This document shows, one piece after another, positions 29,216 through 40,300 of a stretch of 64,000 nucleotides of DNA. The translations under genes were made by a program, and so were the position numbers. Source of the DNA: an uncultured Eubacteriales bacterium (GTDB taxonomy: Bacteria > Bacillota > Clostridia > Oscillospirales > Acutalibacteraceae); assembly GCA_934446475.1 (NCBI GenBank), contig CAKSEH010000009.1, forward strand, positions 10,353 through 74,352, in the 5' to 3' direction. A model generated the notes under the pieces. It had not been told where the DNA came from. It did not search any database and worked only from the letters and a program-made list of their open reading frames with translations. Numbering within the stretch: position 1 is the first letter of the stretch; each line of letters begins with the position of its first letter.

Positions 29216-30483
29216 AGGTCCCAATTTTTGAACTCCCCTTAAACGGAGTCGAAAAGTTGGGACCTTCATATTTTATCAATGCTTATTAAACTCCGTTTCT
29301 ATTTGAAACGGAGTTTTTATGTTTAATTTTCTATGGGGACGTTCCTCGTTATAAAAGTGCAAGTATTCCTCCATTACTAATTTTAACTCCTCGGGGGAAG
29401 AATATAGATTGTGATATATAGCTTCTTTTTTCAACGAGTGGAAAAACGCCTCGCAAACAGAATTGTCGTATGGTTTGCCCGGAGTTGAAAAAGATTGTTT
29501 CACCTTTTTACTTTTTAGATATTGCCGGAAAGCAAACGAGGTATATTGCACCCCCTGATCACTGTGAAACATTAAGCTTTTGGGTTTCCCTCGTTTTTTA
29601 AAGGCTTCTTCAAAGGTTTTCATTGTAAGCGTGGTATCCATTACATCGGATATCCCGTAAGAAATCGCTATTCTTGAAAATAAATCAAGAATTATACAAA
29701 CATAAAAGTATTCGTTTCCAACTTTTACATATGTAATATCAGAAACCCAAACTTGATTTGGTCGGCTTTGTTCGAATTCGCGCATTAAATAATTTTTGAA
29801 ATAATAACGTGGAATTGGCTTTTTGTGTTCAGCCATATATTTTGGCTTTTCAACCTCTAAGCCCATTTCTTGCATTAATCGGCAAACCCGTTTTTCGCTT
29901 ACCTGATATCCCATTTCTTTTAATTTGTATTGTATTGGCTTTCGACCAAAACGCTTTTTACTATCAAAAAATACCTGTTTGATTATGGGTTTTAAGAATT
30001 CATCTTCTTTATCGTGTTGGGTCAGCATTTTTTCGCAGCGTTTTCTGTTGTAATATGTACCACGTGGAAGGTTTAACGCCTCGCATAATACGTGTATAGA
30101 ATACTGACCTTCCAGTTCTTTGATGGCCGACATCTTTTCATCAATGGATGCATTCACACCGCATGAAGCTTTACGCACCACTTCCAACATATATTCTGTT
30201 TTCTTTAAATGTGCTTGTGACTGACGAAAATTTTTATATTTTGAACTGCCATTGATAATAAGATCGTGTTCCTTGCTGTAAAGTTTCCTCCAATCAAACA
30301 ACGAGGTTTGAGAAATTCCAAATTCTTGTATTGTTTCTTCAATTATGTGATTTCTTTCATAAAACTTTACAACCGTCTCCTTGAATTTTTGCGTATAAAT
30401 TTTAGGTGACATAAAAACTCTCCTTTTGATATAGTCTAAATATAATTATATCAAAAAACAGGTGCAGCTGAAAAGTTGCACCT
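29216..30483 (-). mobile_element. IS3-family insertion sequence (boundaries approximate)
   Basis: A single transposase ORF flanked by imperfect terminal inverted repeats (aggtcccaatttt at 29216 versus the reverse complement of aaaagttgcacct at 30471-30483). It starts 7 bp after the tRNA 3' end. I could not recognise a clear target-site duplication. Confidence 0.55.
29276..30412 (-). CDS. IS3-family transposase (HTH + DDE/rve integrase core, fused single ORF)
   Basis: 378 aa with an N-terminal HTH (ETIQEFGISQTSLFDWRK), then PNQVWVSDITYV...FHSDQGVQYTS...PYDNSVCEAFF...YNEERPH, the typical rve domain pattern. Confidence 0.88.
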   Translation of the reverse strand: MSPKIYTQKFKETVVKFYERNHIIEETIQEFGISQTSLFDWRKLYSKEHDLIINGSSKYKNFRQSQAHLKKTEYMLEVVRKASCGVNASIDEKMSAIKELEGQYSIHVLCEALNLPRGTYYNRKRCEKMLTQHDKEDEFLKPIIKQVFFDSKKRFGRKPIQYKLKEMGYQVSEKRVCRLMQEMGLEVEKPKYMAEHKKPIPRYYFKNYLMREFEQSRPNQVWVSDITYVKVGNEYFYVCIILDLFSRIAISYGISDVMDTTLTMKTFEEAFKKRGKPKSLMFHSDQGVQYTSFAFRQYLKSKKVKQSFSTPGKPYDNSVCEAFFHSLKKEAIYHNLYSSPEELKLVMEEYLHFYNEERPHRKLNIKTPFQIETEFNKH

Positions 30484-30500
30484 GTTAGTAAAATGTTGTA

Positions 30501-30791
30501 TTACCACTCAATCCATTTCATATTTGATTCTGCTTCCCAAAAAGACTTTCCTTCAATTATGGAATCATTTAAAAGTTTTTCCATACATTCATTTTGTGTA
30601 TTACCTTCACATCTGTAAACAGTATCAACATAATGGTCGTTTTCATCCCACAAATGAATTTCGAAAGAATAAACTTTTTCATTAGGGTTATATATTAAAC
30701 CGTGGAAAAAGTATTTTTTTCCGTTATAAATAACGGCTTCTTCTTGAAATGTTATTTTATCAATGAATTCTGACACATTTCCGTCTATCAT
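30501..30791 (-). CDS. Hypothetical small acidic protein (immunity-protein-like; speculative)
   Basis: 96 aa; ATGA start/stop overlap with the upstream ORF; no motif I recognise. Confidence 0.5.
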   Translation of the reverse strand: MIDGNVSEFIDKITFQEEAVIYNGKKYFFHGLIYNPNEKVYSFEIHLWDENDHYVDTVYRCEGNTQNECMEKLLNDSIIEGKSFWEAESNMKWIEW

Positions 30792-31162
30792 ATTAAAATC
30801 CCCCTAAAAAACTTTTTGTACTTTTTGTATTCTTTCTCTGTTAAAGGTCTGGCTTTGCGGTTAGAAAAATCATCCGGCTTATATTCGTGGACGTGCAATA
30901 CGGGCTTTCGTGAAGGGTCAATGCTCATTTCGGGATGATAGGCGATTTCAAACCGAAGGAAATGGTTTTTATCATATTCTCGATACATTTTGAATTTTCC
31001 GTCCGGATGCAATTGAATATAAGCTGTGCTGGAATGTGCTTCTTCGGGAAGGGCTTTTCGTCCGGGTTTTCCTTGCAAAACCTTTACACCTTTAATTTTA
31101 TCTACGGTATCATAGGTATATGCCACATTATTACCACTTGCAAAAGTTCCTCTTCCGCCCAT
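30788..31162 (-). CDS. Hypothetical protein (possible toxin-like partner of the 96-aa ORF; speculative)
   Basis: I place the start at MGGRGTFASGNN (ATG 31162), 1 nt after the stop of the upstream gene. Contains the motif HVHEY. Function unknown. Confidence 0.5.
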   Translation of the reverse strand: MGGRGTFASGNNVAYTYDTVDKIKGVKVLQGKPGRKALPEEAHSSTAYIQLHPDGKFKMYREYDKNHFLRFEIAYHPEMSIDPSRKPVLHVHEYKPDDFSNRKARPLTEKEYKKYKKFFRGILI

Positions 31163-31163
31163 A

Positions 31164-31787
31164 TCAGCGCACCACCTTTCGTGACGCCATATAATCAATA
31201 GTAATTATATTTCCTTGCATTTGAGGAAAGGGTGTACCAAAACATATTACCTTCGATGGTTGAATTCTTTTAAGCATTTCATTATAGCCGCGCAAAAATT
31301 GAAATTTTGCTTTTTTACACCCTACCATCCCTATGGCTACAATACTGCCTTGCTCAACACCGTCAAAGCAAAATTCAAAACTGCGAGCATCGCTCCAACT
31401 AACTGTTGGTATAACAGTTATCCCTTTGCTTTGCCAATAAGCGCCTACCCAACGGTTTTTTGCAACGCTTTCAAGTTGACGCCAAAAATCCATATCCGCA
31501 TATGTAGAAAAGTCGGGTGAAAGCAAAAAAGCATACTGTGAATATCTTTTGAAGGTTCTTTCGGGATTATCATAAATCCCGTTAAAGCGATAATCATCAA
31601 CGAAAAAATGTACGCCTTTTTTCTTGTTTTCTTCTTTGTCGTTTGTCCGCGTGTCGGAACATGCTACTAACATAATATCGTTGGTAGAAAGTTCTTGTTT
31701 TCGGATAATGGGGATCCCCCACTTACCGCCAGAATTAAAATTGTTACGTATGAATAGAGGGTTGTCCCTCATAGCTTTACTGGTCAT
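31164..31787 (-). CDS. DUF4417-like protein (phage-associated family; assignment from memory)
   Basis: The segment GVHFFVDDYRFNGIYDNPE...LLSPDFSTYADM...NRWVGAYWQSKGITVIPTVSW matches my recollection of DUF4417. I place the start at MTSKAMRDN, 1 nt after the stop of the upstream ORF. Confidence 0.55.
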   Translation of the reverse strand: MTSKAMRDNPLFIRNNFNSGGKWGIPIIRKQELSTNDIMLVACSDTRTNDKEENKKKGVHFFVDDYRFNGIYDNPERTFKRYSQYAFLLSPDFSTYADMDFWRQLESVAKNRWVGAYWQSKGITVIPTVSWSDARSFEFCFDGVEQGSIVAIGMVGCKKAKFQFLRGYNEMLKRIQPSKVICFGTPFPQMQGNIITIDYMASRKVVR

Positions 31788-31788
31788 A

Positions 31789-31998
31789 TTATGACACCTC
31801 CGTAGAATTATTTGTTTTTTGCATAATATTTTCGCAGCAGAAAGTGGCACATTTTGTGCGATTTCTGTTGCATTTTTCTCCGGAATGTGCTAATATGTAT
31901 TTACCAAGATACGAATGGCAACATTCGGAGAGAGGCATTGTATTGATTGCGCCAACAATCTTTACAGTGCTTTTTCTTTTTGTTTTACTTACAAGCAA
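31789..31998 (-). CDS. Small Cys-rich hypothetical protein
   Basis: 69 aa with 7 Cys (CCHSY...EKCNRNRTKCATFCC), tightly packed in the same co-directional gene string. Confidence 0.35.
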   Translation of the reverse strand: MLVSKTKRKSTVKIVGAINTMPLSECCHSYLGKYILAHSGEKCNRNRTKCATFCCENIMQKTNNSTEVS

Positions 31999-32021
31999 TT
32001 CACATCACCACCTTTATTTTA

Positions 32022-32545
32022 TTAGTATTTCAATCGTTTTTCAGCAGCCGCTTTAGAAACGCCGAAATTTTTCATAAGTTCTTTTGCTGACATTCCATTA
32101 GATGCTTCATAAGGCATCATGACCTCCCCGGCAAGTGCCATAACAATCCATTCAAGCCTTCTATAACAAGGAGTTTCTTTTGTTAGCCTTCTTGAAAAAA
32201 TAGGTTTAAACCCTATTTTGTCAGCGAATGGATGCATTATTTCGTGCATTATATGCATACGGTGACCGCCGGTCTTTTTTTATATGCGCCCATATAAACA
32301 GATTCTTTAATCTGTATGAGGTAACCGTCTTCTGTTCTTTCACATTGAGCCGGAACATTGCCAGGCAATACATCATTGTATACTATTTCATACCTAACAT
32401 CCTCGAAACCTTCCAACTCGGGTAATCTGTCAAGTAATACAATAGGATCAATGGACTCATCATTGGTGAATCCACAAATAGAACGAAACAATTTTGCCCA
32501 AAGGCGCAATTCATTTCTGCTTGTGGCTCTGGTTTCGTAATCCAT
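32022..32545 (-). pseudogene. ImmA/IrrE-family metallopeptidase split by a frameshift at an A7 run
   Basis: The two track ORFs (32249..32548 and 32022..32258) are the N- and C-terminal parts. The downstream part carries HEIMH (HExxH). Adding one A to the A7 tract (T7 on + at 32275-32281) yields the continuous sequence ...GAYKKKTGGHRMHIMHEIMHP... Confidence 0.7.
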
Positions 32546-32907
32546 CAATTATCCTCCTTATCAAGAAGTTTAATGATGGCTGCAGCGGTATCCTCATCGA
32601 GTTTTTCAAAAGAACGCTGAAACTGAACCGCCAGTCTGCGCTGGGTGTTGGTGGTAGATACCAAATTGATTTTAACTTGCGTTTTTGACTGTTCGACCGC
32701 TTCGAACAACTCTGCTTGTTCTTCTGCATTCAGATTATAATGCGCAATGAGAATGGGAATCCATTCTTCAGGAACATTTCTTTTTCCGCTTTCTACCGTA
32801 GATACAAAAGGAAGTTTAACGTCAAGCAGCTTTGCAGTATCCCCCATAACCTCGTGGTTTTTTACGCGCTGAATTCTCATAAATTCGCCAAATTTTGTGT
32901 AACTCAT
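32545..32907 (-). CDS. XRE-family HTH transcriptional regulator (ImmR-like partner of ImmA)
   Basis: MSYTKFGEFMRIQRVKNHEVMGDTAKLLDVKLPFVSTVESGKRNVP. AAAGGAG lies 7 nt before ATG 32907. The stop overlaps the ImmA start (TGATG). Confidence 0.8.
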   Translation of the reverse strand: MSYTKFGEFMRIQRVKNHEVMGDTAKLLDVKLPFVSTVESGKRNVPEEWIPILIAHYNLNAEEQAELFEAVEQSKTQVKINLVSTTNTQRRLAVQFQRSFEKLDEDTAAAIIKLLDKEDN

Positions 32908-33141
32908 ATCGCCACTCCTTTCTATCACGAAAATAATTATATCATCAGTTATGCAAATTGTCAATAACTAATTTAATCATTTTCTGGTTAATGAAACAAG
33001 GCTTTTATTTTTGAGTTTCATCTTTTTCGGTGCTACGAGACATAAAAGCATTCCGCACGGGGTGCTTTTTCTTTATGCCGTTTTTCGACCGTTTTCGACT
33101 GAGGGATATGAGCCCACGGGTAAATAATTCGAATGGTGAAA

Positions 33142-33171
33142 CGGTAGTGAATGACAGTCCGGGGGACTGTC
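33142..33171. repeat. Third (inverted, partial) copy of the GC-rich repeat core seen at 39601 and 40111
   Basis: cggtagtgaatgacagtccgggggactgtc is the exact reverse complement of 39601..39630. Confidence 0.9.
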
Positions 33172-33221
33172 ATTTAAGCAGTGCTACCCCTACATAAGGA
33201 GAGCTTTATAAGTCCTCATTT

Positions 33222-33550: not shown

Positions 33551-34009
33551 TCATTTTATTACAGTATGCTTTATTTTCGAAAGCAGCGGGTAAAGCTTAC
33601 ATTTCCAAACAAATCTTGCAGGATAAAAAAGTCTCATAAAAAAAACATATATCTTATATTTAAAGCTCGTTTCAGGATCGCAATATTTACCGTTTCTGTA
33701 AAAGGCTTTCATTACACCGACAATTTGCTTGTCCGTTATACCATATTCTTTTCGATATGTATTATCGCCTCTTATGATATATTTGCCGTCCCGTGTTATT
33801 TTAATAATTCTGTGCAGAACAAGCTTATCCCTTGCCGGCACATCATAAGCAACAACATCGTGCTTTTTAAGAGGCCTGTCAACCTTTTTTATTATAACTA
33901 CATCCCTGTGCTGCCTGAGCATCGGGCGCATACTGACGCCTTCTGTAAGCACCGGAGCTTCATCAGATATTTCAAGGCAATGCGCCACATCCATTTTACT
34001 TTCAGGCAT
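33551..34009 (-). CDS. S24/S26-family serine peptidase (signal-peptidase-like; candidate leader peptidase)
   Basis: 152 aa with the GVSMRPML nucleophile motif, LVLHRIIKI and RGDNT, plus a hydrophobic C-terminal tail. TAATG overlap with the PqqD-like gene. Confidence 0.65.
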   Translation of the reverse strand: MPESKMDVAHCLEISDEAPVLTEGVSMRPMLRQHRDVVIIKKVDRPLKKHDVVAYDVPARDKLVLHRIIKITRDGKYIIRGDNTYRKEYGITDKQIVGVMKAFYRNGKYCDPETSFKYKIYVFFMRLFYPARFVWKCKLYPLLSKIKHTVIK

Positions 34010-34275
34010 TACTCAACAATACCTTTGCTTAGAAGCCTTGCTGTGAATTCTTTTACAGTTTCCCTTATTTCATTTTCGGGTGTATCGGCATAATCTTTTT
34101 TCATAGCTTCAACTATTTCATCCTCGGTAACATCATTTTTCAGCATACCGAAAATATACGCTCCGACATCATTCATTTTAATAAAACCTCTGAAATTTTC
34201 AAGGCTATCCCCTACCGGAATCGCAACCTGTTTATCTGCAACCGTATTTATAACAAAATTATATTTAAGTTTCAT
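34009..34275 (-). CDS. PqqD-family peptide chaperone (RRE-type)
   Basis: 88 aa. The pattern ...VADKQVAIPVGD...IKMNDVGAYIFGMLKNDVTEDEIVEAMKKDY...EIRETVKEFTARLLSKGIV matches stand-alone PqqD-like proteins. Confidence 0.65.
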   Translation of the reverse strand: MKLKYNFVINTVADKQVAIPVGDSLENFRGFIKMNDVGAYIFGMLKNDVTEDEIVEAMKKDYADTPENEIRETVKEFTARLLSKGIVE

Positions 34276-34396
34276 CTTGTTTGACTCCTCATCATTTTAA
34301 AAATCAGAATGTTAACACAATATTCTACACTCATTATAATGGCTTTTGGTCACAAATTTTCTTTGAAAATTTGTCAATGTCCATTGCAATGAATAT

Positions 34397-34477
34397 GGTC
34401 AAAATTAAATTTGTGGAAATTTAATTTTGACCAGGCCGATAAAATCGGCCTGTCGAAACAATTTTTGGTGTTTCGAC
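34397..34477 (-). other. Three back-to-back perfect hairpins between the HprK-like and PqqD-like genes
   Basis: 14-bp stem ggtcaaaattaaat/atttaattttgacc (34397-34432), 7-bp stem aggccga/tcggcct (34433-34451) and 9-bp stem gtcgaaaca/tgtttcgac (34452-34477). No U-tracts. Confidence 0.6.
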
Positions 34478-34513
34478 ATTCTATAATCATTATAAAACAT
34501 TCGGGATACAAAA

Positions 34514-35239
34514 TCAATTAAAAATTGTATCATAGGCCACTCTTGCCGCCTCAGGTTCCATATTGCAATGGATTATCCAGAGGTTGCAGGAGGTGAGCAG
34601 GCGGTCTATCAAGGCTATTGTGTTTGCCGCAGCAAGCGGATCGCTCGGCATATAGACCTGATTGAGAATTCTGTCTACAGCGTCTTTTTGATCAATTTTT
34701 TCAACATAGTTTTTTTCACTGCGCTCTATAAAGCAGATATGCTTAAGCGGAGTTCTCATATTGCAACCGTAGCTTTCTTTGCCGTTCCACGGGGTGCCAT
34801 AAGCATAAGGCGTTTCGGGCTCGTCATCAAAAAATCTGATAATAGGTTTATCACCGTTAACGATAGTCATTTTATTGCCTAAAAGCTGTTGCCAAAGGCG
34901 CATATGGGTTGTTTTTCCGGTTCCGCTCTGTGCTGCAAAGGCAACTCCTTCACCCTGTACATCTATACATACGGAATGAAGGACAAAAGCATTAAAGGCA
35001 GGTATAATATTGCTTAATTTGCGAAAGTTTGCAGCAATTTTAAAAGTTGACGGGTATATCTTCTCTATCTGATCCCCATATGTTTGTTCCTCATATAAAA
35101 CTTCTTCATCTGTGACCTTTAAAGTAATATCCGCACTATCAAAATCACTAAGATAATCACGCATAACCCTATTAAAATTTTTCATATCTGTCTCAAAGGA
35201 AATATTAAACCCTGCTATTTTACATTTAACAATATTCAT
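34514..35239 (-). CDS. P-loop protein, HprK-related kinase-like (tentative)
   Basis: 241 aa with Walker A QSGTGKTT in the context GVAFAAQSGTGKTTHMRLW. Its size and its position next to the rSAM and PqqD-like genes resemble the HprK-like kinases of RiPP loci. Confidence 0.45.
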   Translation of the reverse strand: MNIVKCKIAGFNISFETDMKNFNRVMRDYLSDFDSADITLKVTDEEVLYEEQTYGDQIEKIYPSTFKIAANFRKLSNIIPAFNAFVLHSVCIDVQGEGVAFAAQSGTGKTTHMRLWQQLLGNKMTIVNGDKPIIRFFDDEPETPYAYGTPWNGKESYGCNMRTPLKHICFIERSEKNYVEKIDQKDAVDRILNQVYMPSDPLAAANTIALIDRLLTSCNLWIIHCNMEPEAARVAYDTIFN

Positions 35240-35253
35240 AAACTATCCTGCCG

Positions 35254-36633
35254 TTAAAAGTTGTTTTTTTCTTTTTCAAGTCTTAAAAATTCGTTGTAAA
35301 TGTTTCTTAATTTTGCATTCATTCGATTAATTATTGCCATTTTATCTGCCTCATCGCAATGATTCGGTACTCCCGTGCAACACTTAAGCGACATACACAT
35401 AGAACGCATTTCGCAATCTTCACATACAGAGGCAATATTTCTGCGTTCTTTATACTTTTGAATTTTTGCGTAATCAATTTCGTCACTATAAATACTGCCG
35501 TAAAAATCGCTGTCAACAAAATGCTCGCACTTGCCTAAATGACCGTCCGGCACTATCATAACAGAATTATCACTGCATGCCATACAAGTATTCGGAGAAG
35601 CAAAAGCTTTCGGGAGATTCTTAATAGGCACCGGCGGCATATTTTCATCAATAAAATTTTGAAGTTTAACGGAATTCTCAATAAGCCTATGGCGGTCTGC
35701 AACATCACGGTTCTTTATTTTTGAACAAGTATCCTCAAACAGGCGCACAACATAAATATGGCAGTTTGAATATTCCTTAAATCTATTTACCAATAACTTC
35801 GAGAGCTGAAAAAGGTCCTCGGCATTGTGCTCGTCCATATTAAGCCTTACACTTACCTGAATTCCTGCCGCAAGTGCATTTTCTATATTATTTAAAACCC
35901 TTTTAAAGGGACTTGGATCATTCTTATAAACATAATTTTTTGTTTTATTATATATTTCTTCTGTGCCGTCAAGAGTTATTTGCATCATATCAAGTTTCCA
36001 TAAATCAACGGCTTTTTTGATTACTTCATCGTCAAGTAAATATCCGTTTGTTACCATTTTCGAAGAAAAAATAATGTTTTTTGCAGCTAAATCACTTGAT
36101 ATTATATCAATAACTTTCATATTTACAAGCGGTTCTCCGCCAAACCACTGAATTCTTATCTTATTTGCGCCCTTTTTATCAATAAAATCAGCTACATCGT
36201 GCGCCGTATTCTCAGTCATATTAGAAATCTTTGCGCCCTGCTCGAAGCAATAAAAGCATCTGGCATTACAGCCGGTTGTTGTGAGAATAACAAAATGTGA
36301 AAGCGGCGGATTTGTATAGATATTCTGAATTGCAAGCCGAGCTTCTATCAGATCGGATGCAAACTTTTTATCATTAAAATCTTCAGGAACCAAAAAATAG
36401 CTTTCAATAAGATAACGAATGTCCTGATTGGATAAATCAGGGTGTTTAAGTTGCTTAATTTCATCCGATGTAAGAAATATCAACTCATAAGTAACTGTAT
36501 TTACGAGCAAAACTCCGCCCTCAACCGGGCATTGACTTAGATAAAATGATTTTCTGTAGCCTTTATTCTCATCGATTTTTTGTTTGTCTAAAATTTGTTT
36601 TACGATATTTGTTTGTTCGTAAATAAGTTTCAT
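35254..36633 (-). CDS. Radical SAM/SPASM-domain peptide-modifying enzyme with an N-terminal extension
   Basis: CNARCFYC (CxxxCxxC) at about aa 125-133. Cys-rich C-terminus: CMACSDNSVMIVPDGHLGKCEHF...CEDCEMRSMCMSLKCCTGVPNHC. I prefer the ATG at 36633 (MKLIYEQ) over the track's TTG at 36645. Confidence 0.85.
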   Translation of the reverse strand: MKLIYEQTNIVKQILDKQKIDENKGYRKSFYLSQCPVEGGVLLVNTVTYELIFLTSDEIKQLKHPDLSNQDIRYLIESYFLVPEDFNDKKFASDLIEARLAIQNIYTNPPLSHFVILTTTGCNARCFYCFEQGAKISNMTENTAHDVADFIDKKGANKIRIQWFGGEPLVNMKVIDIISSDLAAKNIIFSSKMVTNGYLLDDEVIKKAVDLWKLDMMQITLDGTEEIYNKTKNYVYKNDPSPFKRVLNNIENALAAGIQVSVRLNMDEHNAEDLFQLSKLLVNRFKEYSNCHIYVVRLFEDTCSKIKNRDVADRHRLIENSVKLQNFIDENMPPVPIKNLPKAFASPNTCMACSDNSVMIVPDGHLGKCEHFVDSDFYGSIYSDEIDYAKIQKYKERRNIASVCEDCEMRSMCMSLKCCTGVPNHCDEADKMAIINRMNAKLRNIYNEFLRLEKEKNNF

Positions 36634-36733
36634 AGTTTTCACCAAGCATTATATATTATAAGGTGTTATAAAAACATCTGCTATTTCAAAATTCGAATAT
36701 AAAATCAATATTAAAAAATGCAACAACTAAGGC

Positions 36734-36770
36734 AAAAGCCCCGCAAAAAACGGGGCTTTCATTTTTTAAA
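36734..36770 (-). terminator. GC hairpin with U-run between the precursor ORF and the rSAM gene (attenuator-type terminator)
   Basis: On the minus strand: aaagccccg ttttttg cggggcttt tgcc. It begins about 10 nt after the precursor stop. Confidence 0.6.
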
Positions 36771-36779
36771 ACCATTGAA

Positions 36780-36896
36780 TTAATAGCGACCAGCCATCTG
36801 ATCCAAATCACTCGGGCACTGAAAATCACAACACTCTTCACCCGAAACTGTAACAACATCGTTCTTTAACTCAACGATCTCTAAATATGCCTTCAT
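36780..36896 (-). CDS. Candidate RiPP precursor peptide (38 aa)
   Basis: Below the track cutoff; hand-translated as ATG AAG GCA TAT ... CGC TAT TAA = MKAYLEIVELKNDVVTVSGEECCDFQCPSDLDQMAGRY. AGGTG lies 6 nt upstream of the ATG. The ORF sits directly upstream of the rSAM/SPASM gene on the same strand. Confidence 0.6.
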   Translation of the reverse strand: MKAYLEIVELKNDVVTVSGEECCDFQCPSDLDQMAGRY

Positions 36897-36938: not shown

Positions 36939-38792
36939 TTATTTTGCACTGTAAGCTCTGAATGAGATACCGAGTTTAATAAGTGCTGTAGAAATTGCAC
37001 CTATAGAAGAATCAGACATAGCAGCACCTAAATAAGACTCAACGCTATAGGTTACAGAATATACCTTTTCACCGTCATATGTTATCTCAACAACAAGATC
37101 CTGGTTGCCATCCTGAATGCCTATCTGGTCAAACTTAAAAGATATCCAAGAGCCTGAACGCGTTATAGCACCGCTGTCAACTGTGAATGTTACATCGTAA
37201 GGAGTTTCTGTTCCGTCACCTGCAACCTGAGTATAAGTAACCTTAAAGCTCAGCTTGCTGAGATCTAAAACGTTTCCGCTGTCTTTAACACGATATGTGA
37301 TATACGGCGCTTTACCAATCGAAACAGAAGTTCTGACCTGATGTCTGTTTGAGCTTGCAGAACCAAAATCTGAATTGAATGATTGGTTGGTATTTATTGT
37401 GTTATAAGAATCTACAGATGCAGTTGCTTCGCTTATATCAAAGCCTTCAATTATGGAAGGTGCTTTCGCAAGATCAGAATCGGCATAATTTGCAGCCATA
37501 CCCTTAACGGACTCATCACCAACAATTAAAGTGTCTGTAATCAAGGTGCGAAGTTTTGCATTAGATGCCTGTTCTTCAAATACATTTTTCAAATATGTTG
37601 CAGGAGAAATAGTGAATGTTTCCGAGACTGCAACAAGATTGCCGCTCTCATCATATGCTCTTAACATATAGTTAATATCAAGGCCAAGTTCGTAAAGCTG
37701 AATATCGGTATATGTATAAGACCTCATTGAGCCGGCAGCAGCAAGTTCTGATTTGTTCTTAACTATTTCCTGAGGATTCGGATCAATATTAAGTGTTGCA
37801 CTGTCATACTTCTGGGGAATGATAACAAGCTCCATATCGGCATACGAGTTCAATACTGTATTAGTAACACGGAAAGCCATCTGGAGAGAACTTGCACCAT
37901 AACCGAGAGAAGCGCTTCTGAAAGTTAACGAAGTATCAACTACGGGTTCAGTGCTCTGCTTTTTATATCCGCACACGGTGCAGGTATTATTTTCATCAAA
38001 AGTATGATCAGCTGTTGTGCCGTCTATAGTAACGCTGCACCTACTGCAAACTTCTGCATGCTGTGTATCGCTTATAGAGGTAACAACGCCATCGTGACCT
38101 AAAGCATCGATAGGAGTAGTCCACTCAGCGCCGCAATCGGGGCAAGTGTGTCTCTCTTCACCGGGCTCGGTGCAAGTGGGTTCAACTACTGTTGTGGTGG
38201 TCGCATTGCCGTGGCTGCAGTTCGTTCCTGCTACGACTTTTTGATTTGTTTCAGCAGCTTCAACCTGATTTATAAGGCCATTTTCATTATTGTTTGCACA
38301 GGGGAATGTGAGAAGGTTCTCATCACCTAAAGTGCCATCATCTCCGACAGTACCCTGATCGGCTGCCTGGATGTGGGTGAGGGTGATATAGTGCTGGGTT
38401 GAATCATCCTTAACAACCTTGATGCTGATAGTTGCAGCCGTTATAGCAGACAAATTCGTTACATCAACACGCTTAACAAGCATCGTAAGGGTTGTTCCGC
38501 TTACTTTTGACTCAACGCTGAGGTTTTCAGCATTATTGTCAACAGCGGTTACAGCATCTTCATCACTGCTGAGAGCATAGCCTGTTAGCTCTGCTTTAGC
38601 AACAGCCACAAGATATCCTGTTTCGGAATCAATGTGGAGGGTTGCGGTGTCATACGCACCGGATGCAACAACATCAGCATCAAACGCATATGTACCGTTT
38701 GGCTCGGCTGCCATTGAGGTTAAACACATTGCCGGGCAAATGACAATGGCTACCGCAAGGACAACTGCGAGAAGCTTGGGAAATTTTCTCAT
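36939..38792 (-). CDS. Secreted protein of unknown function with a Cys/His zinc-ribbon-like insert
   Basis: 617 aa with signal peptide MRKFPKLLAVVLAVAIVICPAMCLTSMAAEP. The central segment is CSHGNATTTTVVEPTCTEPGEERHTCPDCGAEWTTPIDALGHDG...HAEVCSRCS...HTFDENNTCTVCGYKK. Confidence 0.75.
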   Translation of the reverse strand: MRKFPKLLAVVLAVAIVICPAMCLTSMAAEPNGTYAFDADVVASGAYDTATLHIDSETGYLVAVAKAELTGYALSSDEDAVTAVDNNAENLSVESKVSGTTLTMLVKRVDVTNLSAITAATISIKVVKDDSTQHYITLTHIQAADQGTVGDDGTLGDENLLTFPCANNNENGLINQVEAAETNQKVVAGTNCSHGNATTTTVVEPTCTEPGEERHTCPDCGAEWTTPIDALGHDGVVTSISDTQHAEVCSRCSVTIDGTTADHTFDENNTCTVCGYKKQSTEPVVDTSLTFRSASLGYGASSLQMAFRVTNTVLNSYADMELVIIPQKYDSATLNIDPNPQEIVKNKSELAAAGSMRSYTYTDIQLYELGLDINYMLRAYDESGNLVAVSETFTISPATYLKNVFEEQASNAKLRTLITDTLIVGDESVKGMAANYADSDLAKAPSIIEGFDISEATASVDSYNTINTNQSFNSDFGSASSNRHQVRTSVSIGKAPYITYRVKDSGNVLDLSKLSFKVTYTQVAGDGTETPYDVTFTVDSGAITRSGSWISFKFDQIGIQDGNQDLVVEITYDGEKVYSVTYSVESYLGAAMSDSSIGAISTALIKLGISFRAYSAK

Positions 38793-38889
38793 TTTAAAAA
38801 CTCCTAACCGGCATTACGCCAAAATTTCGGCACCCCTCGGGCACCATGGACTTTTTAGGGTCACTACCGCATATTCTGCGGTTTGATTC

Positions 38890-38918
38890 ATTATAACATC
38901 AGGGGTCTTAAAAATCAA
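38890..38918 (-). promoter_or_regulatory. Promoter for the 617-aa secreted protein gene
   Basis: On the minus strand: TTGATT (38918-38913), 17-nt spacer, TATAAT (38895-38890). This leaves a leader of about 95 nt. Confidence 0.5.
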
Positions 38919-39536
38919 GTACAAATACGAAAAAACATCACAAAAACAATAAAAAATATTTTCGACAATTGCGAACAGTGGCAAATTTGCACAACGATTA
39001 TTTATTTTCATCGTCAAGCCGTACAAAACATCCTGCGATCGAAACAACGCATACACGGTTTATAATTAAGCGCTTAAACAAATGCTACAAAGAACATAAA
39101 AAACGCCTTACTGCACACTGTGACAAAAATACAGGCTGCAAATTAAAAAATCCGCCACACGGAAACGCTGAAAGGAAATCGCCGGAAGCGGAACTAAAGA
39201 TCCAAAATCAAAAAAAGGCTTTAACTGCCCTATCGCAGGGCCGAGGTTAGGCAGCTCGACCCTGCGACTATGTAATTTGAGAAAATTACCACTCTCATTA
39301 TACATTATAGCAGTTAAAAGTCAAGTTTATTCGTTTAAGTTACACAAAGTTTATGAAAAATGAACGAAAAGCCTTTTTGGCAAATGATGTTTTATTTCAA
39401 AATCACCATAACGACTTTTTAGCCTTTTTGAATTTTTATTATTTGAAATTCAAAGATAAAATGGAAACTTCGTTCTTTTTGATATTAGATTTAAAGTTTG
39501 ATCTTTGATATTTAAGCCGCAGCTTTGATTTAAGCT

Positions 39537-39667
39537 TTAAACAATCCCTCAGTCCCTGACGGGACATTTCTCGCTGCGGCTCGGTCACCTCACGGCTTAA
39601 GACAGTCCCCCGGACTGTCATTCACTACCGCTCGGTCGCCTTCGGCTACCCTTTACACAAAGGAGCC
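39537..39667. repeat. GC-rich structured intergenic repeat, copy A
   Basis: 39566-39667 matches 40076-40177 at 100/102 positions and contains the near-palindrome gacagtcccccggactgtc. Confidence 0.9.
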
Positions 39668-39777
39668 TATATACAATGAAGTTTTACTATTAAAATAAGG
39701 CTTTACTGCCTTTTTAGGCGCCCTTCTTTTTGTCGCAAGACAAAATAGAGGGGAGCTGTCCCGTCAGGGACTGAGGG
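39546..39777. repeat. Perfect 21-bp inverted repeat pair spanning about 230 bp
   Basis: ccctcagtccctgacgggaca (39546-39566) is the exact reverse complement of tgtcccgtcagggactgaggg (39757-39777). Confidence 0.9.
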
Positions 39778-39868
39778 GTATTCTTTCATTGTGGTTTTAT
39801 ATTTTTTAACCTTTTGAATTTAGTGTTTATTGAAAATTAAAGAGAGACGAGAAAAGTGCACCCTTTTC

Positions 39869-39985
39869 GATATTAAAATTTGATGTTTAATCTTTAACAT
39901 TTAAGCAGCTGCTTTAATTTTTTTAAAACAACCCCTCCGTCAAAGTTTCGCTTTGCCACCTCCCCTTACACAGGGCAGGCATCAT
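39869..39985. repeat. Degenerate middle unit of the tandem composite repeat
   Basis: The AT-rich lead-in gatattaaaatttgatgtttaatctttaacatttaagc parallels 39481-39517 and 39993-40026. The GC-rich tail aacccctccgtcaaag...ccccttacacagggcaggc parallels ...ccctttacacaaaggagcc. Confidence 0.6.
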
Positions 39986-40043
39986 ATTCAATAGGCTTAG
40001 AAAGTTTAATCTTTAACATTCTAAGCTTCTTCGATTTAAGTTT

Positions 40044-40177
40044 TTAAACAATCCCTCAGTCTCGCTACGCTCGCCATTTCTCACTGCGGCTCGGTCACCT
40101 CACGGCTTAAGACAGTCCCCCGGACTGTCATTCACTACCGCTCGGTCGCCTTCGGCTACCCTTTACACAAGGGAGCC
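40044..40177. repeat. GC-rich structured intergenic repeat, copy B
   Basis: See copy A; there are two mismatches over the 102-bp core. Confidence 0.9.
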
Positions 40178-40228
40178 AATATATTCAGTGCAGTTTTATT
40201 GCTATAATAAGGCCTTATCGTTTATTGC

Positions 40229-40264
40229 AAAATCGGCTTCCTTTGAACAAGAAAGCCGATTTTA
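40229..40264 (-). terminator. Terminator of the OppA-like gene
   Basis: On the minus strand: aaaatcggctttc ttgttcaaa ggaagccgatttt, followed by gcaat. Confidence 0.6.
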
Positions 40265-40300
40265 TAATATGCAATATTTTAAACATAAAAAGCAGTTTAT

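Follow-up and report, generated by a model that had tools for sequence, protein, structure and literature searches.

The 64,000-nt stretch of contig CAKSEH010000009.1 from an uncultured Eubacteriales bacterium that we analysed (the window) carries a compact cassette, every part of which lies on the minus strand. It encodes a 38-aa peptide, a radical S-adenosylmethionine (rSAM)/SPASM enzyme, a P-loop (Walker-A) protein, a stand-alone PqqD-type protein and a small S26-like peptidase. Our results suggest that this locus represents an apparently uncharacterised rSAM-dependent family of peptides that are made by ribosomes and modified after translation (RiPPs), in which an acidic, Cys-containing peptide is matured. 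We put the probability of this interpretation at roughly 0.7. Our confidence is higher than this figure for the existence of a RiPP cassette as such, and lower for each single chemical step.

All the parts named in the original prediction were found where it had placed them (Table 1). It had overlooked the gene upstream of the precursor gene, which encodes a conserved secreted protein of 617 aa. Gene calls on four independent metagenome contigs include the 38-aa open reading frame (ORF), which was absent from the earlier ORF track, and a Shine-Dalgarno-like site (GGCAGGTG) is located 6 nt ahead of its ATG. It follows the gene of the 617-aa protein at a spacing of 42 nt, with no terminator in between. 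The hairpin with a U-run that had been noted past the short ORF was also recovered. Judged from its position between the precursor and rSAM genes, it is probably an attenuator that sets the precursor:enzyme ratio. The reading frame of the rSAM gene extends to a TTG at 36645, but the ATG at 36633 was adopted as the start because it is the first codon of an identical 459-aa protein in the databases and of the genes called on four contigs. The TAATG overlap between the PqqD and peptidase genes was confirmed.

The precursor peptide family and its conservation

Related loci were collected by a scan of one genome per GTDB species, which gave at least 539 relatives of the rSAM protein, and the best 80 of them were kept as loci. 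The components were counted by iterative hidden Markov model (HMM) searches of the locus ORFs, and many of the contigs are incomplete. The original prediction had proposed to check whether a short ORF always accompanies the rSAM homologues. A precursor family was found next to homologous rSAM genes by jackhmmer in 50 of the 80 loci (51/81 sources when the window is included), with E-values down to 1e-22, and a relaxed HMM raised the number to 56/80. The hosts of this family are Clostridia, Bacteroidales, Atopobiaceae and Lentisphaeria. The conservation of the precursor beside homologous rSAM genes is what the idea of a RiPP-type pathway had called for.

In the window, the 38-aa precursor consists of the leader MKAYLEIVELKNDVVTVS and the predicted core GEECCDFQCPSDLDQMAGRY. 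Sixty precursor-family sequences were used for the statistics of both parts. The leader of about 18-22 aa is conserved, with the consensus K-(Y/F)-x-K-(A/P)-E-M-E-(I/V)-(V/I)-x-(F/L)-x3-D-(V/I)-(I/V)-T-(T/A)-S. At the leader-core junction, Ser(-1) is present in 59/60 sequences and Asp(-6) in 53/60, position -2 is Thr or Ala, position -3 is Thr, Cys or Val, and Gly is the commonest residue following the junction Ser. The cores are hypervariable and 8-30 aa long (median 18). They contain 12% Cys, 24% Asp plus Glu, 14% Gly and 1% Lys plus Arg, and at least one Cys occurs in 56 of the 60.

The pattern C-x-x-[D/E] was present in 38/60 cores against 21.6 expected, and 0/2000 within-core shuffles reached this count, in a test that ignores the relatedness among the sequences and is inflated by it. 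C-P-x-[D/E] was present in 13/60 cores against 1.8 expected, again with 0/2000 shuffles reaching the count and with relatedness ignored. Cys-x3-[D/E] was found in 22 cores against 20.4 expected, and there was no enrichment at other spacings. The window core itself contains C-P-S-D.

No NCBIfam precursor family was matched, and there is no SCIFF motif. Several loci have two precursor copies, and one (L038) has five in tandem with differing cores, one of which is Cys-free. The leader of several Bacteroidales loci (L020, L030, L019, L013, L023, L045) differs and reads …KKKFEKPQMEVVKLKP….

The other components were also recovered around the rSAM gene, with PqqD in 49/80 loci, the P-loop protein in 47/80 and the peptidase in 29/80. 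The counts in the 11 closest loci that have 2.5 kb or more on each flank were 11 for the P-loop protein, 10 for PqqD, 10 for the peptidase, 11 for the precursor and 11 for the 617-aa protein. In 24 loci the PqqD gene adjoins the peptidase gene, and in 31 loci the P-loop gene adjoins the rSAM gene. The gene content is retained in several bacterial phyla, while the gene order is reshuffled between them. In Bacteroidales, for example, the order is precursor, rSAM, PqqD, P-loop, peptidase, PqqD. Loci of Bacteroidales, Atopobiaceae, Lentisphaeria and Lachnospiraceae were found to carry the peptidase without the 617-aa protein. No gene fusions were found among the P-loop, PqqD and peptidase genes of these loci, and the long ORFs proved to be start-codon artefacts.

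The Clostridia among the 80 loci belong to Acutalibacteraceae, Oscillospiraceae, Ruminococcus, Lachnospiraceae, Dorea acetigenes and Faecalibacterium, and the remaining taxa comprise Bacteroidales, Prevotella, Atopobiaceae, Solobacterium and Lentisphaeria. Nearly all of the sources are gut or rumen. A complete cassette is present in Dorea acetigenes Sanger_03 (L069), with WP_262575462.1 as its precursor. In the cultured human-gut species Dorea acetigenes, the homologues of the precursor and the P-loop protein are both named 'hypothetical protein' (the latter ScmC in UniRef), and the others are named 'PqqD family protein', 'S24/S26 family peptidase' and 'radical SAM protein'.

The stand-alone PqqD gene is present twice in the Bacteroidales loci, some of which also have a second P-loop gene in tandem or a second rSAM gene. 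These extra copies suggest that the recognition and P-loop components have been duplicated and subfunctionalised. A C39-peptidase ATP-binding cassette (ABC) exporter, an extracytoplasmic function (ECF) sigma factor and a 161-aa protein were observed together in three loci (L064, L065, L079), LytTR-domain regulators in three others (L040, L041, L061), and other ABC exporters in further relatives. The earlier statement that there is no dedicated exporter thus holds at the window locus but not for those relatives with C39-ABC exporters.

Table 1. Positions of the cassette components and neighbouring elements in the window, and of ORFs at the equivalent slot of related loci
Feature	Position	Strand	Remarks
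Gene of 617-aa secreted protein (big617)	36939-38792	minus	first in transcription order
38-aa precursor ORF	36780-36896	minus	MKAYLEIVELKNDVVTVSGEECCDFQCPSDLDQMAGRY
GC-rich hairpin with T-run, intrinsic-terminator-like	36761-36733	minus	stem 9-12 bp; between precursor and rSAM genes
459-aa rSAM/SPASM gene	35254-36633	minus	peptide-maturase type
241-aa Walker-A (P-loop) protein gene	34514-35239	minus	14 nt past rSAM gene
Intergenic gap, exactly 238 bp	34276-34513	minus	four perfect hairpins and promoter-like site
88-aa stand-alone PqqD-type RiPP recognition element (RRE) gene	34009-34275	minus	PF05402 match
152-aa S26-like peptidase gene	33551-34009	minus	GVSMRP motif; ATG overlaps PqqD stop codon (TAATG)
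Terminator-like hairpin with T-run closing the cassette	33546-33515	minus	3' of peptidase gene
Xre-type helix-turn-helix protein	32545-32964		mobile-element remnant
Adjacent ORF pair resembling a split ImmA/IrrE HExxH protease	32249-32548 and 32022-32258		mobile-element remnant
DUF4417/phrog_940 nuclease-like protein	31164-31850		mobile-element remnant
IS3-family transposase	29276-30412		mobile-element remnant
109-nt direct repeats, 97% identical	39565-39673 and 40075-40183		within 1.5-kb spacer
Slot-filling ORFs in relatives	L001 9285-9638, L003 9609-10070, L010 4993-5361, L015 9270-9758		same P-loop/PqqD slot

The putative maturation enzymes

The rSAM enzyme had been described as a CxxxCxxC protein with an N-terminal extension and a Cys-rich, SPASM-type C-terminus, and each of these features was confirmed. 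CNARCFYC occupies residues 122-129 (C122, C126, C129), the seven SPASM-type Cys are C350, C369, C404, C407, C413, C419 and C426, and the N-terminal domain measures about 115 aa. All ten Cys were invariant in the alignment of 22 homologues at 41-71% identity. The Pfam matches were Radical_SAM (E=2e-16) and Fer4_12. The nearest NCBIfam models are all RiPP maturases, namely TIGR04463 (126 bits), CefB, Clo7bot, FlmE/OhkG, geopeptide and PapB. The protein scored far below every curated NCBIfam cut-off (340-600 bits), with a best E-value of 1e-43 for a family member, and its 2131 homologues are named merely 'radical SAM protein'. The closest solved structure is that of the thermocellin synthase CteB (5wgg, E=2.8e-17). 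The first 115 aa or so of the rSAM enzyme can be aligned with the N-terminal portions of three maturase models (SCIFF, CefB and TIGR04463), and the matching region of CteB is an RRE. An identity as anaerobic sulfatase maturase (anSME), which the original prediction had named as the alternative to a RiPP maturase, was rejected, as TIGR03942 gave 45 bits against a cut-off of 349 and CteB was the best PDB match.

The P-loop protein contains the Walker A motif SGTGKTT. Within its family, H88, G106-x-G108-K109-x-T111-H112, N128-x-D130 and K154 are invariant, and the motifs LH(S/A), F-x-A-x-SGTGK(S/T)TH, V-N-(G/D)-D-K-P and G-T-P-W-x-G-K were recognised. The family profile matched phosphoenolpyruvate carboxykinase (PEPCK, 1ii2) and HprK/P (1ko7) in the PDB, with the LH, GxSGxGKS and (A/N)DD motifs aligned. 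Among 18 family members, ScmC was matched by 15 (best E=1.7e-8), HprK_rel_B by 10 and HprK by 8, and the database copy of the protein is already faintly labelled with Pfam PF27840 'ScmC'. The AlphaFold2 model was of good quality by its predicted local distance difference test (pLDDT 89.3) and predicted template-modelling score (pTM 0.85). Its best Foldseek matches were HprK/P (1kkl/1kkm/1jb1; L. casei HprK/P E=1.5e-6, probability 1.0), followed by PEPCK, and the best whole-chain superpositions were on ATP-dependent PEPCKs, with template-modelling scores for the query (TMq) of 0.50-0.56.

The cut-offs of HprK/P were not reached (TIGR00679 15.6 against 240 bits; Hpr_kinase_C 12.8 against 33.3), and HprK/P proper was rejected, although the fold and the motifs are shared. 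The profiles and the predicted fold agree with the earlier HprK-related, kinase-like reading, and they point to an HprK/PEPCK-fold, weakly ScmC-like protein that is a putative ATP-dependent phosphotransferase. The sole low-confidence segment of the model (residues 154-160, pLDDT <50) is a conserved loop with the invariant K154 and N160. On the model, this loop may be a mobile substrate-binding or catalytic lid.

The 88-aa protein is a genuine PqqD-like protein, as had been supposed, with Pfam PF05402 at E=1.1e-11 and 45.3 bits against a gathering score of 23.4. It showed further weak matches to the lasso B1, WgkC and ScmD models.

The peptidase was first labelled S24/S26. The G-x-S-M-x-P, H-R and G-D motifs (G, SM, P, HR, GD) are at least 90% conserved in 28 homologues. 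The sole family matches were TIGR02228, archaeal-type signal peptidase I (E=8e-9), and, more weakly, SipW and the nickel superoxide dismutase (NiSOD) maturation protease, and none of the three curated cut-offs was reached (TIGR02228 35.5 against 51.85 bits). From the conserved Ser/His motifs and the family matches, it is therefore an S26B-like Ser/His enzyme and not a LexA-type Ser/Lys S24 peptidase. The S26 half of the label stands, in an anchorless SipW/archaeal-type form, and the S24 half does not. No transmembrane (TM) segment was predicted (maximum 19-residue hydropathy 0.64), and with no hydrophobic segment the active site should therefore face the cytoplasm. Its sequence and the translational coupling to the PqqD gene suggest a soluble S26-like (SipW/archaeal-type) putative leader peptidase.

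The secreted neighbour and the genomic surroundings

The 617-aa protein begins with a signal peptide and a cohesin-like N-terminal module, which are followed by a disordered linker, a Cys-rich segment and a conserved C-terminal beta-sandwich/helical region of about 330 aa, with the Cys-rich segment lying outside the conserved region. In the AlphaFold2 model (pLDDT 82.5), the cohesin module matched 2vo8 (template-modelling score for the target, TMt, 0.63). Beyond cohesin, the fold search gave generic multi-Ig matches, which offer no hint of a function. None of the 60 homologues of the 617-aa protein has a name, and Pfam Cohesin was found in some of them. The protein is present in 24/80 loci and in 11/11 of the closest loci with full flanks. 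In 21 loci its gene lies directly upstream of the precursor, and within the Clostridia subset this position is constant. The peptidase is present in many loci without the 617-aa protein, so the latter does not explain the peptidase. Our data suggest that the 617-aa protein is a probable accessory or partner of the cassette. In four loci (L048, L052, L058, L077), an SLH-domain surface protein adjoins the P-loop/rSAM genes instead.

The gap between the P-loop and PqqD genes had been described with its exact length but with three hairpins, whereas we found four perfect inverted repeats of 10, 9, 17 and 10 bp. Only the first two are kept (85% identity), and solely in the closest relative, L002. 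In other relatives, the same slot is filled by unrelated selfish-type ORFs, that is, a 23S_rRNA_IVP, a DUF559 endonuclease-like ORF, an ORF clustering with IS200-like transposases and an AAA fragment, while the window version is ORF-free and hairpin-rich. The gap is likely a transcription boundary or an insertion-prone slot. A multicopy miniature inverted-repeat transposable element was rejected here, because the window has a single copy of the gap and no relative other than the closest one matches it. When the cassette, the hairpin gap and the upstream spacer of 1.5 kb were scanned with Rfam, no family exceeded its threshold.

The contig of the window is 79.7 kb long and comes from a gut metagenome. 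The cassette is flanked by ffh and an SBP_bac_5 gene on one side and by dnaE on the other. The GC content is 36% over about 30-38 kb of the window against about 43% in the flanks, and the same cassette is carried by a Hadza human-gut contig. The cassette was probably acquired horizontally. A defence origin was rejected, as the PADLOC similarity to viperins concerned the generic rSAM core only, and a phage origin was rejected as well, as the PHROGs matches were to generic rSAM families only.

A mobile-element remnant (29276-32964) adjoins the cassette. Upstream of the gene of the 617-aa protein there is a 1.5-kb non-coding spacer (38793-40300) that includes two direct repeats. The repeat core of about 45 nt (CGGTAGTGAATGACAGTCCGGGGGACTGTC…TTAAGC, with a 7-bp hairpin inside) recurs in inverted orientation at 33140-33185, a short way downstream of the peptidase gene, so that inverted copies bracket the cassette.

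Known systems and the proposed pathway

The locus has the general attributes of an rSAM/SPASM system with an RRE: a precursor with a conserved leader and a variable core, an enzyme with CxxxCxxC and a seven-Cys SPASM domain, and a PqqD RRE. It resembles the ranthipeptide/SCIFF systems in that the rSAM/SPASM enzyme carries an N-terminal extension and is closest to CteB, the precursor gene is next to the maturase gene, and the core is Cys-containing and rich in Asp/Glu, with Cys-x2-Asp/Glu enriched. On the other hand, the leader family is distinct, the cores are short and often have only one or two Cys, and the cassette adds an HprK-like P-loop protein, a stand-alone PqqD and an S26-like peptidase. 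Membership was rejected on the scores of PapB NF047865 (83.5 against 340 bits; best PapB E-value among 22 rSAM family members 3.6e-26) and SCIFF TIGR03974 (51 against 425 bits).

The SynChlorMet cassette (ScmC, ScmD, ScmE, ScmF; TIGR04248-04251) is the sole named system that unites a ScmC-type P-loop protein, a PqqD homologue and rSAM/SPASM enzymes. To our knowledge, it has been defined only bioinformatically, and we know of no precursor identified for it. The present cassette differs from it by one rSAM gene instead of two, a clear precursor family, an added S26-like peptidase and its occurrence in gut Clostridia and Bacteroidales. Membership was rejected here too, as the scores with all four models are far below the cut-offs (ScmC TIGR04249 16.4 against 125 bits, ScmD TIGR04248 19 against 100, ScmE 45-46 against 400).

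Lasso peptide clusters of the paeninodin type with split B1/B2 also pair a stand-alone PqqD RRE with a leader peptidase gene, which is the same B1/B2 logic with another protease fold, and they also include an HprK-fold kinase-like protein. The protease of our cassette is an S26-like Ser/His enzyme and its core-modifying enzyme is an rSAM protein. No transglutaminase-like B2 and no Asn-synthetase-like C were found in or beside the cassette by ORF and Pfam searches, and a lasso cluster was rejected. The lasso PqqD models gave about 20 bits with the cassette PqqD at cut-offs of 70-80.

The peptidase shares the GxSMxP, H-R and G-D motifs with SipW/archaeal/endoplasmic reticulum-type signal peptidase I (S26B) and with the cytoplasmic S26 NiSOD protease, and its predicted cleavage site likewise has small residues at -1 and -3. 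It differs in that it has no anchor and that its gene is coupled to that of an RRE and not to those of secretory substrates. A bona fide signal peptidase was rejected on the missing anchor and on the sub-threshold score given above.

The enzyme combination was not described in the full texts searched, a coverage that leaves out most subscription journals. With no component reaching an NCBIfam cut-off and no describing paper found, the original view that no named RiPP class fits the locus is upheld. What is apparently new is the unusual accessory set, in which a ScmC/HprK-like P-loop protein is joined by a soluble S26-like peptidase coupled to an RRE.

From these comparisons, the following pathway may be proposed. 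The hairpin 3' of the precursor gene would keep the precursor transcripts in excess over the enzyme transcripts. The leader would be bound by an RRE, that is, by the stand-alone PqqD and probably also by the N-terminal domain of the rSAM enzyme. The rSAM enzyme would make one or more intramolecular crosslinks from the core Cys, and these would most likely be thioethers with the Asp/Glu at the third position downstream, a Cys-Asp/Glu chemistry that would be ranthipeptide/QhpC-like. The P-loop protein would carry out an ATP-dependent step, most simply phosphoryl transfer, with carboxylate activation as the alternative. HPr-kinase homologues are known to phosphorylate lasso-peptide precursors (PMC7533575, citing Zhu et al. 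2016). In the precursor family studied here, Ser and Thr are both missing from several cores, which leaves the T-T-S junction as the one place with universally conserved hydroxyls. Finally, the PqqD-peptidase pair would cut the leader off after the invariant Ser, which in the window precursor would be between Ser21 and Gly22. The small residues at -3/-1 (T-x-S, then G) fit the signal-peptidase-type rule. The product is probably exported or surface-associated, and its precursor gene is co-transcribed with that of the secreted cohesin-bearing protein.

Several observations weigh against this interpretation. The full trio of P-loop protein, PqqD and peptidase was found together in only 27/80 loci (21/40 with good flanks) and is missing from the more distant rSAM relatives. 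Neither an exporter nor an immunity gene was found at the window locus. Of the 60 cores, 4 are Cys-free, and several are without Ser/Thr, so neither the crosslink nor the phosphorylation can be universal within the core. The Cys-x2-[D/E] enrichment is suggestive only, in view of the shared ancestry that its test disregards. A comparison of the N-terminal 112 alignment columns of the rSAM family with the PqqD family by hhalign was not significant (probability 0.9%), and the RRE nature of that domain is thus taken solely from the homologous maturases. The P-loop protein could also be non-catalytic or act on a non-peptide target.

The last point leads to the most serious alternative, in which the RiPP cassette is the same and the P-loop protein is not a peptide kinase but an ATP-driven scaffold or chaperone of the rSAM enzyme, an activator of Asp/Glu as acyl phosphates, or an enzyme with a non-peptide substrate. 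The similarity to HprK is at the level of fold and motif only, as the 15.6 bits indicate, and the protein superposes better on PEPCK, which has an enolate/carboxylate-type substrate. The cores are rich in Asp/Glu with no conserved Ser/Thr inside, the most frequent neighbour of the P-loop gene is the rSAM gene, and ScmC, its nearest named family, is without a tested function. However, the HprK/P catalytic-type motifs (LH, Walker A Lys, N/A-D-D) are invariant in the P-loop family, and an invariant Ser and a nearly invariant Thr mark the leader-core junction. Moreover, the RiPP-associated members of the HprK fold for which experiments are described are all Ser kinases (PMC7533575). We consider this alternative unlikely on balance, but it deserves serious attention.

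It is improbable that the cassette yields an intracellular cofactor or a metal-binding peptide by a logic like that of pyrroloquinoline quinone or mycofactocin. The architecture is reminiscent of PqqA/D/E and MftA/B/C/E, the window locus is without a transporter, and an acidic Cys-rich core could bind metals. Cofactor precursors, however, keep their reacting residues invariant, whereas these cores are hypervariable and some loci have several differing copies. The cassette is co-transcribed with the gene of a secreted protein, and no dehydrogenase or oxidoreductase partner is conserved near the loci. The C39-ABC exporters and other exporters, ECF sigma factors and LytTR regulators in relatives favour a secreted signal or an antimicrobial peptide over a cofactor.

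Still less probable is that the S26-like peptidase serves as a dedicated signal peptidase for the 617-aa protein, as SipW does for TasA/TapA, and has nothing to do with the small peptide. Such a role would suit its best family matches, the archaeal/SipW-type signal peptidase I, and the classical signal peptide of the 617-aa protein, which is encoded in the same gene string. It is contradicted by the lack of a TM segment and the cytoplasmic active site expected from it, by the sub-threshold signal-peptidase score, by the adjacency to the PqqD RRE gene in 24 loci with an overlap at the window locus, and by the Bacteroidales, Atopobiaceae, Lentisphaeria and Lachnospiraceae loci that have the peptidase without the 617-aa protein. 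That the 38-aa ORF is accidental and the rSAM enzyme matures a protein such as the 617-aa protein in an anSME-/QhpD-like manner is hardly credible and largely refuted by conservation, since the shortness of the ORF, the Cys-rich segment of the 617-aa protein and the weak anSME and QhpD matches are set against a precursor family beside the rSAM gene in 56/80 loci, including loci without the 617-aa protein, scores of 45 bits against 349 (anSME) and 60 bits against 453 (QhpD), and the position of the Cys-rich segment outside the conserved region.

The RiPP pathway proposed above also allows a more speculative extension, which we regard as doubtful. The ScmC-like P-loop enzyme might perform a modification new to RiPPs, either phosphorylation of the invariant junction Thr-Thr-Ser that gates the RRE-guided cleavage by a soluble protease of the signal-peptidase type, or acyl-phosphate activation of the core Asp/Glu for crosslinking. 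The small, acidic, crosslinked peptide might then serve the cohesin-bearing surface protein, with which it is co-transcribed, as a dedicated ligand, and this pair of peptide and surface protein might be common to many gut and rumen anaerobes.

If the RiPP interpretation is true, the cassette would represent a RiPP family that is new and common among bacteria of the gut and the rumen, the cultured Dorea acetigenes of the human gut being one of them. Genome mining could make use of the precursor signature, which is …D-V-I-T-T-S with an acidic Cys core after it. The family would provide the first testable function for the HprK-like proteins of the ScmC type, which are repeatedly found alongside PqqD and rSAM/SPASM genes and are not known to have been characterised, and a signal-peptidase-type, RRE-coupled enzyme would join the known kinds of RiPP leader peptidases. 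The secreted cohesin-bearing neighbour would further hint that the product has a role on the cell surface in fibre-degrading or gut Clostridia.

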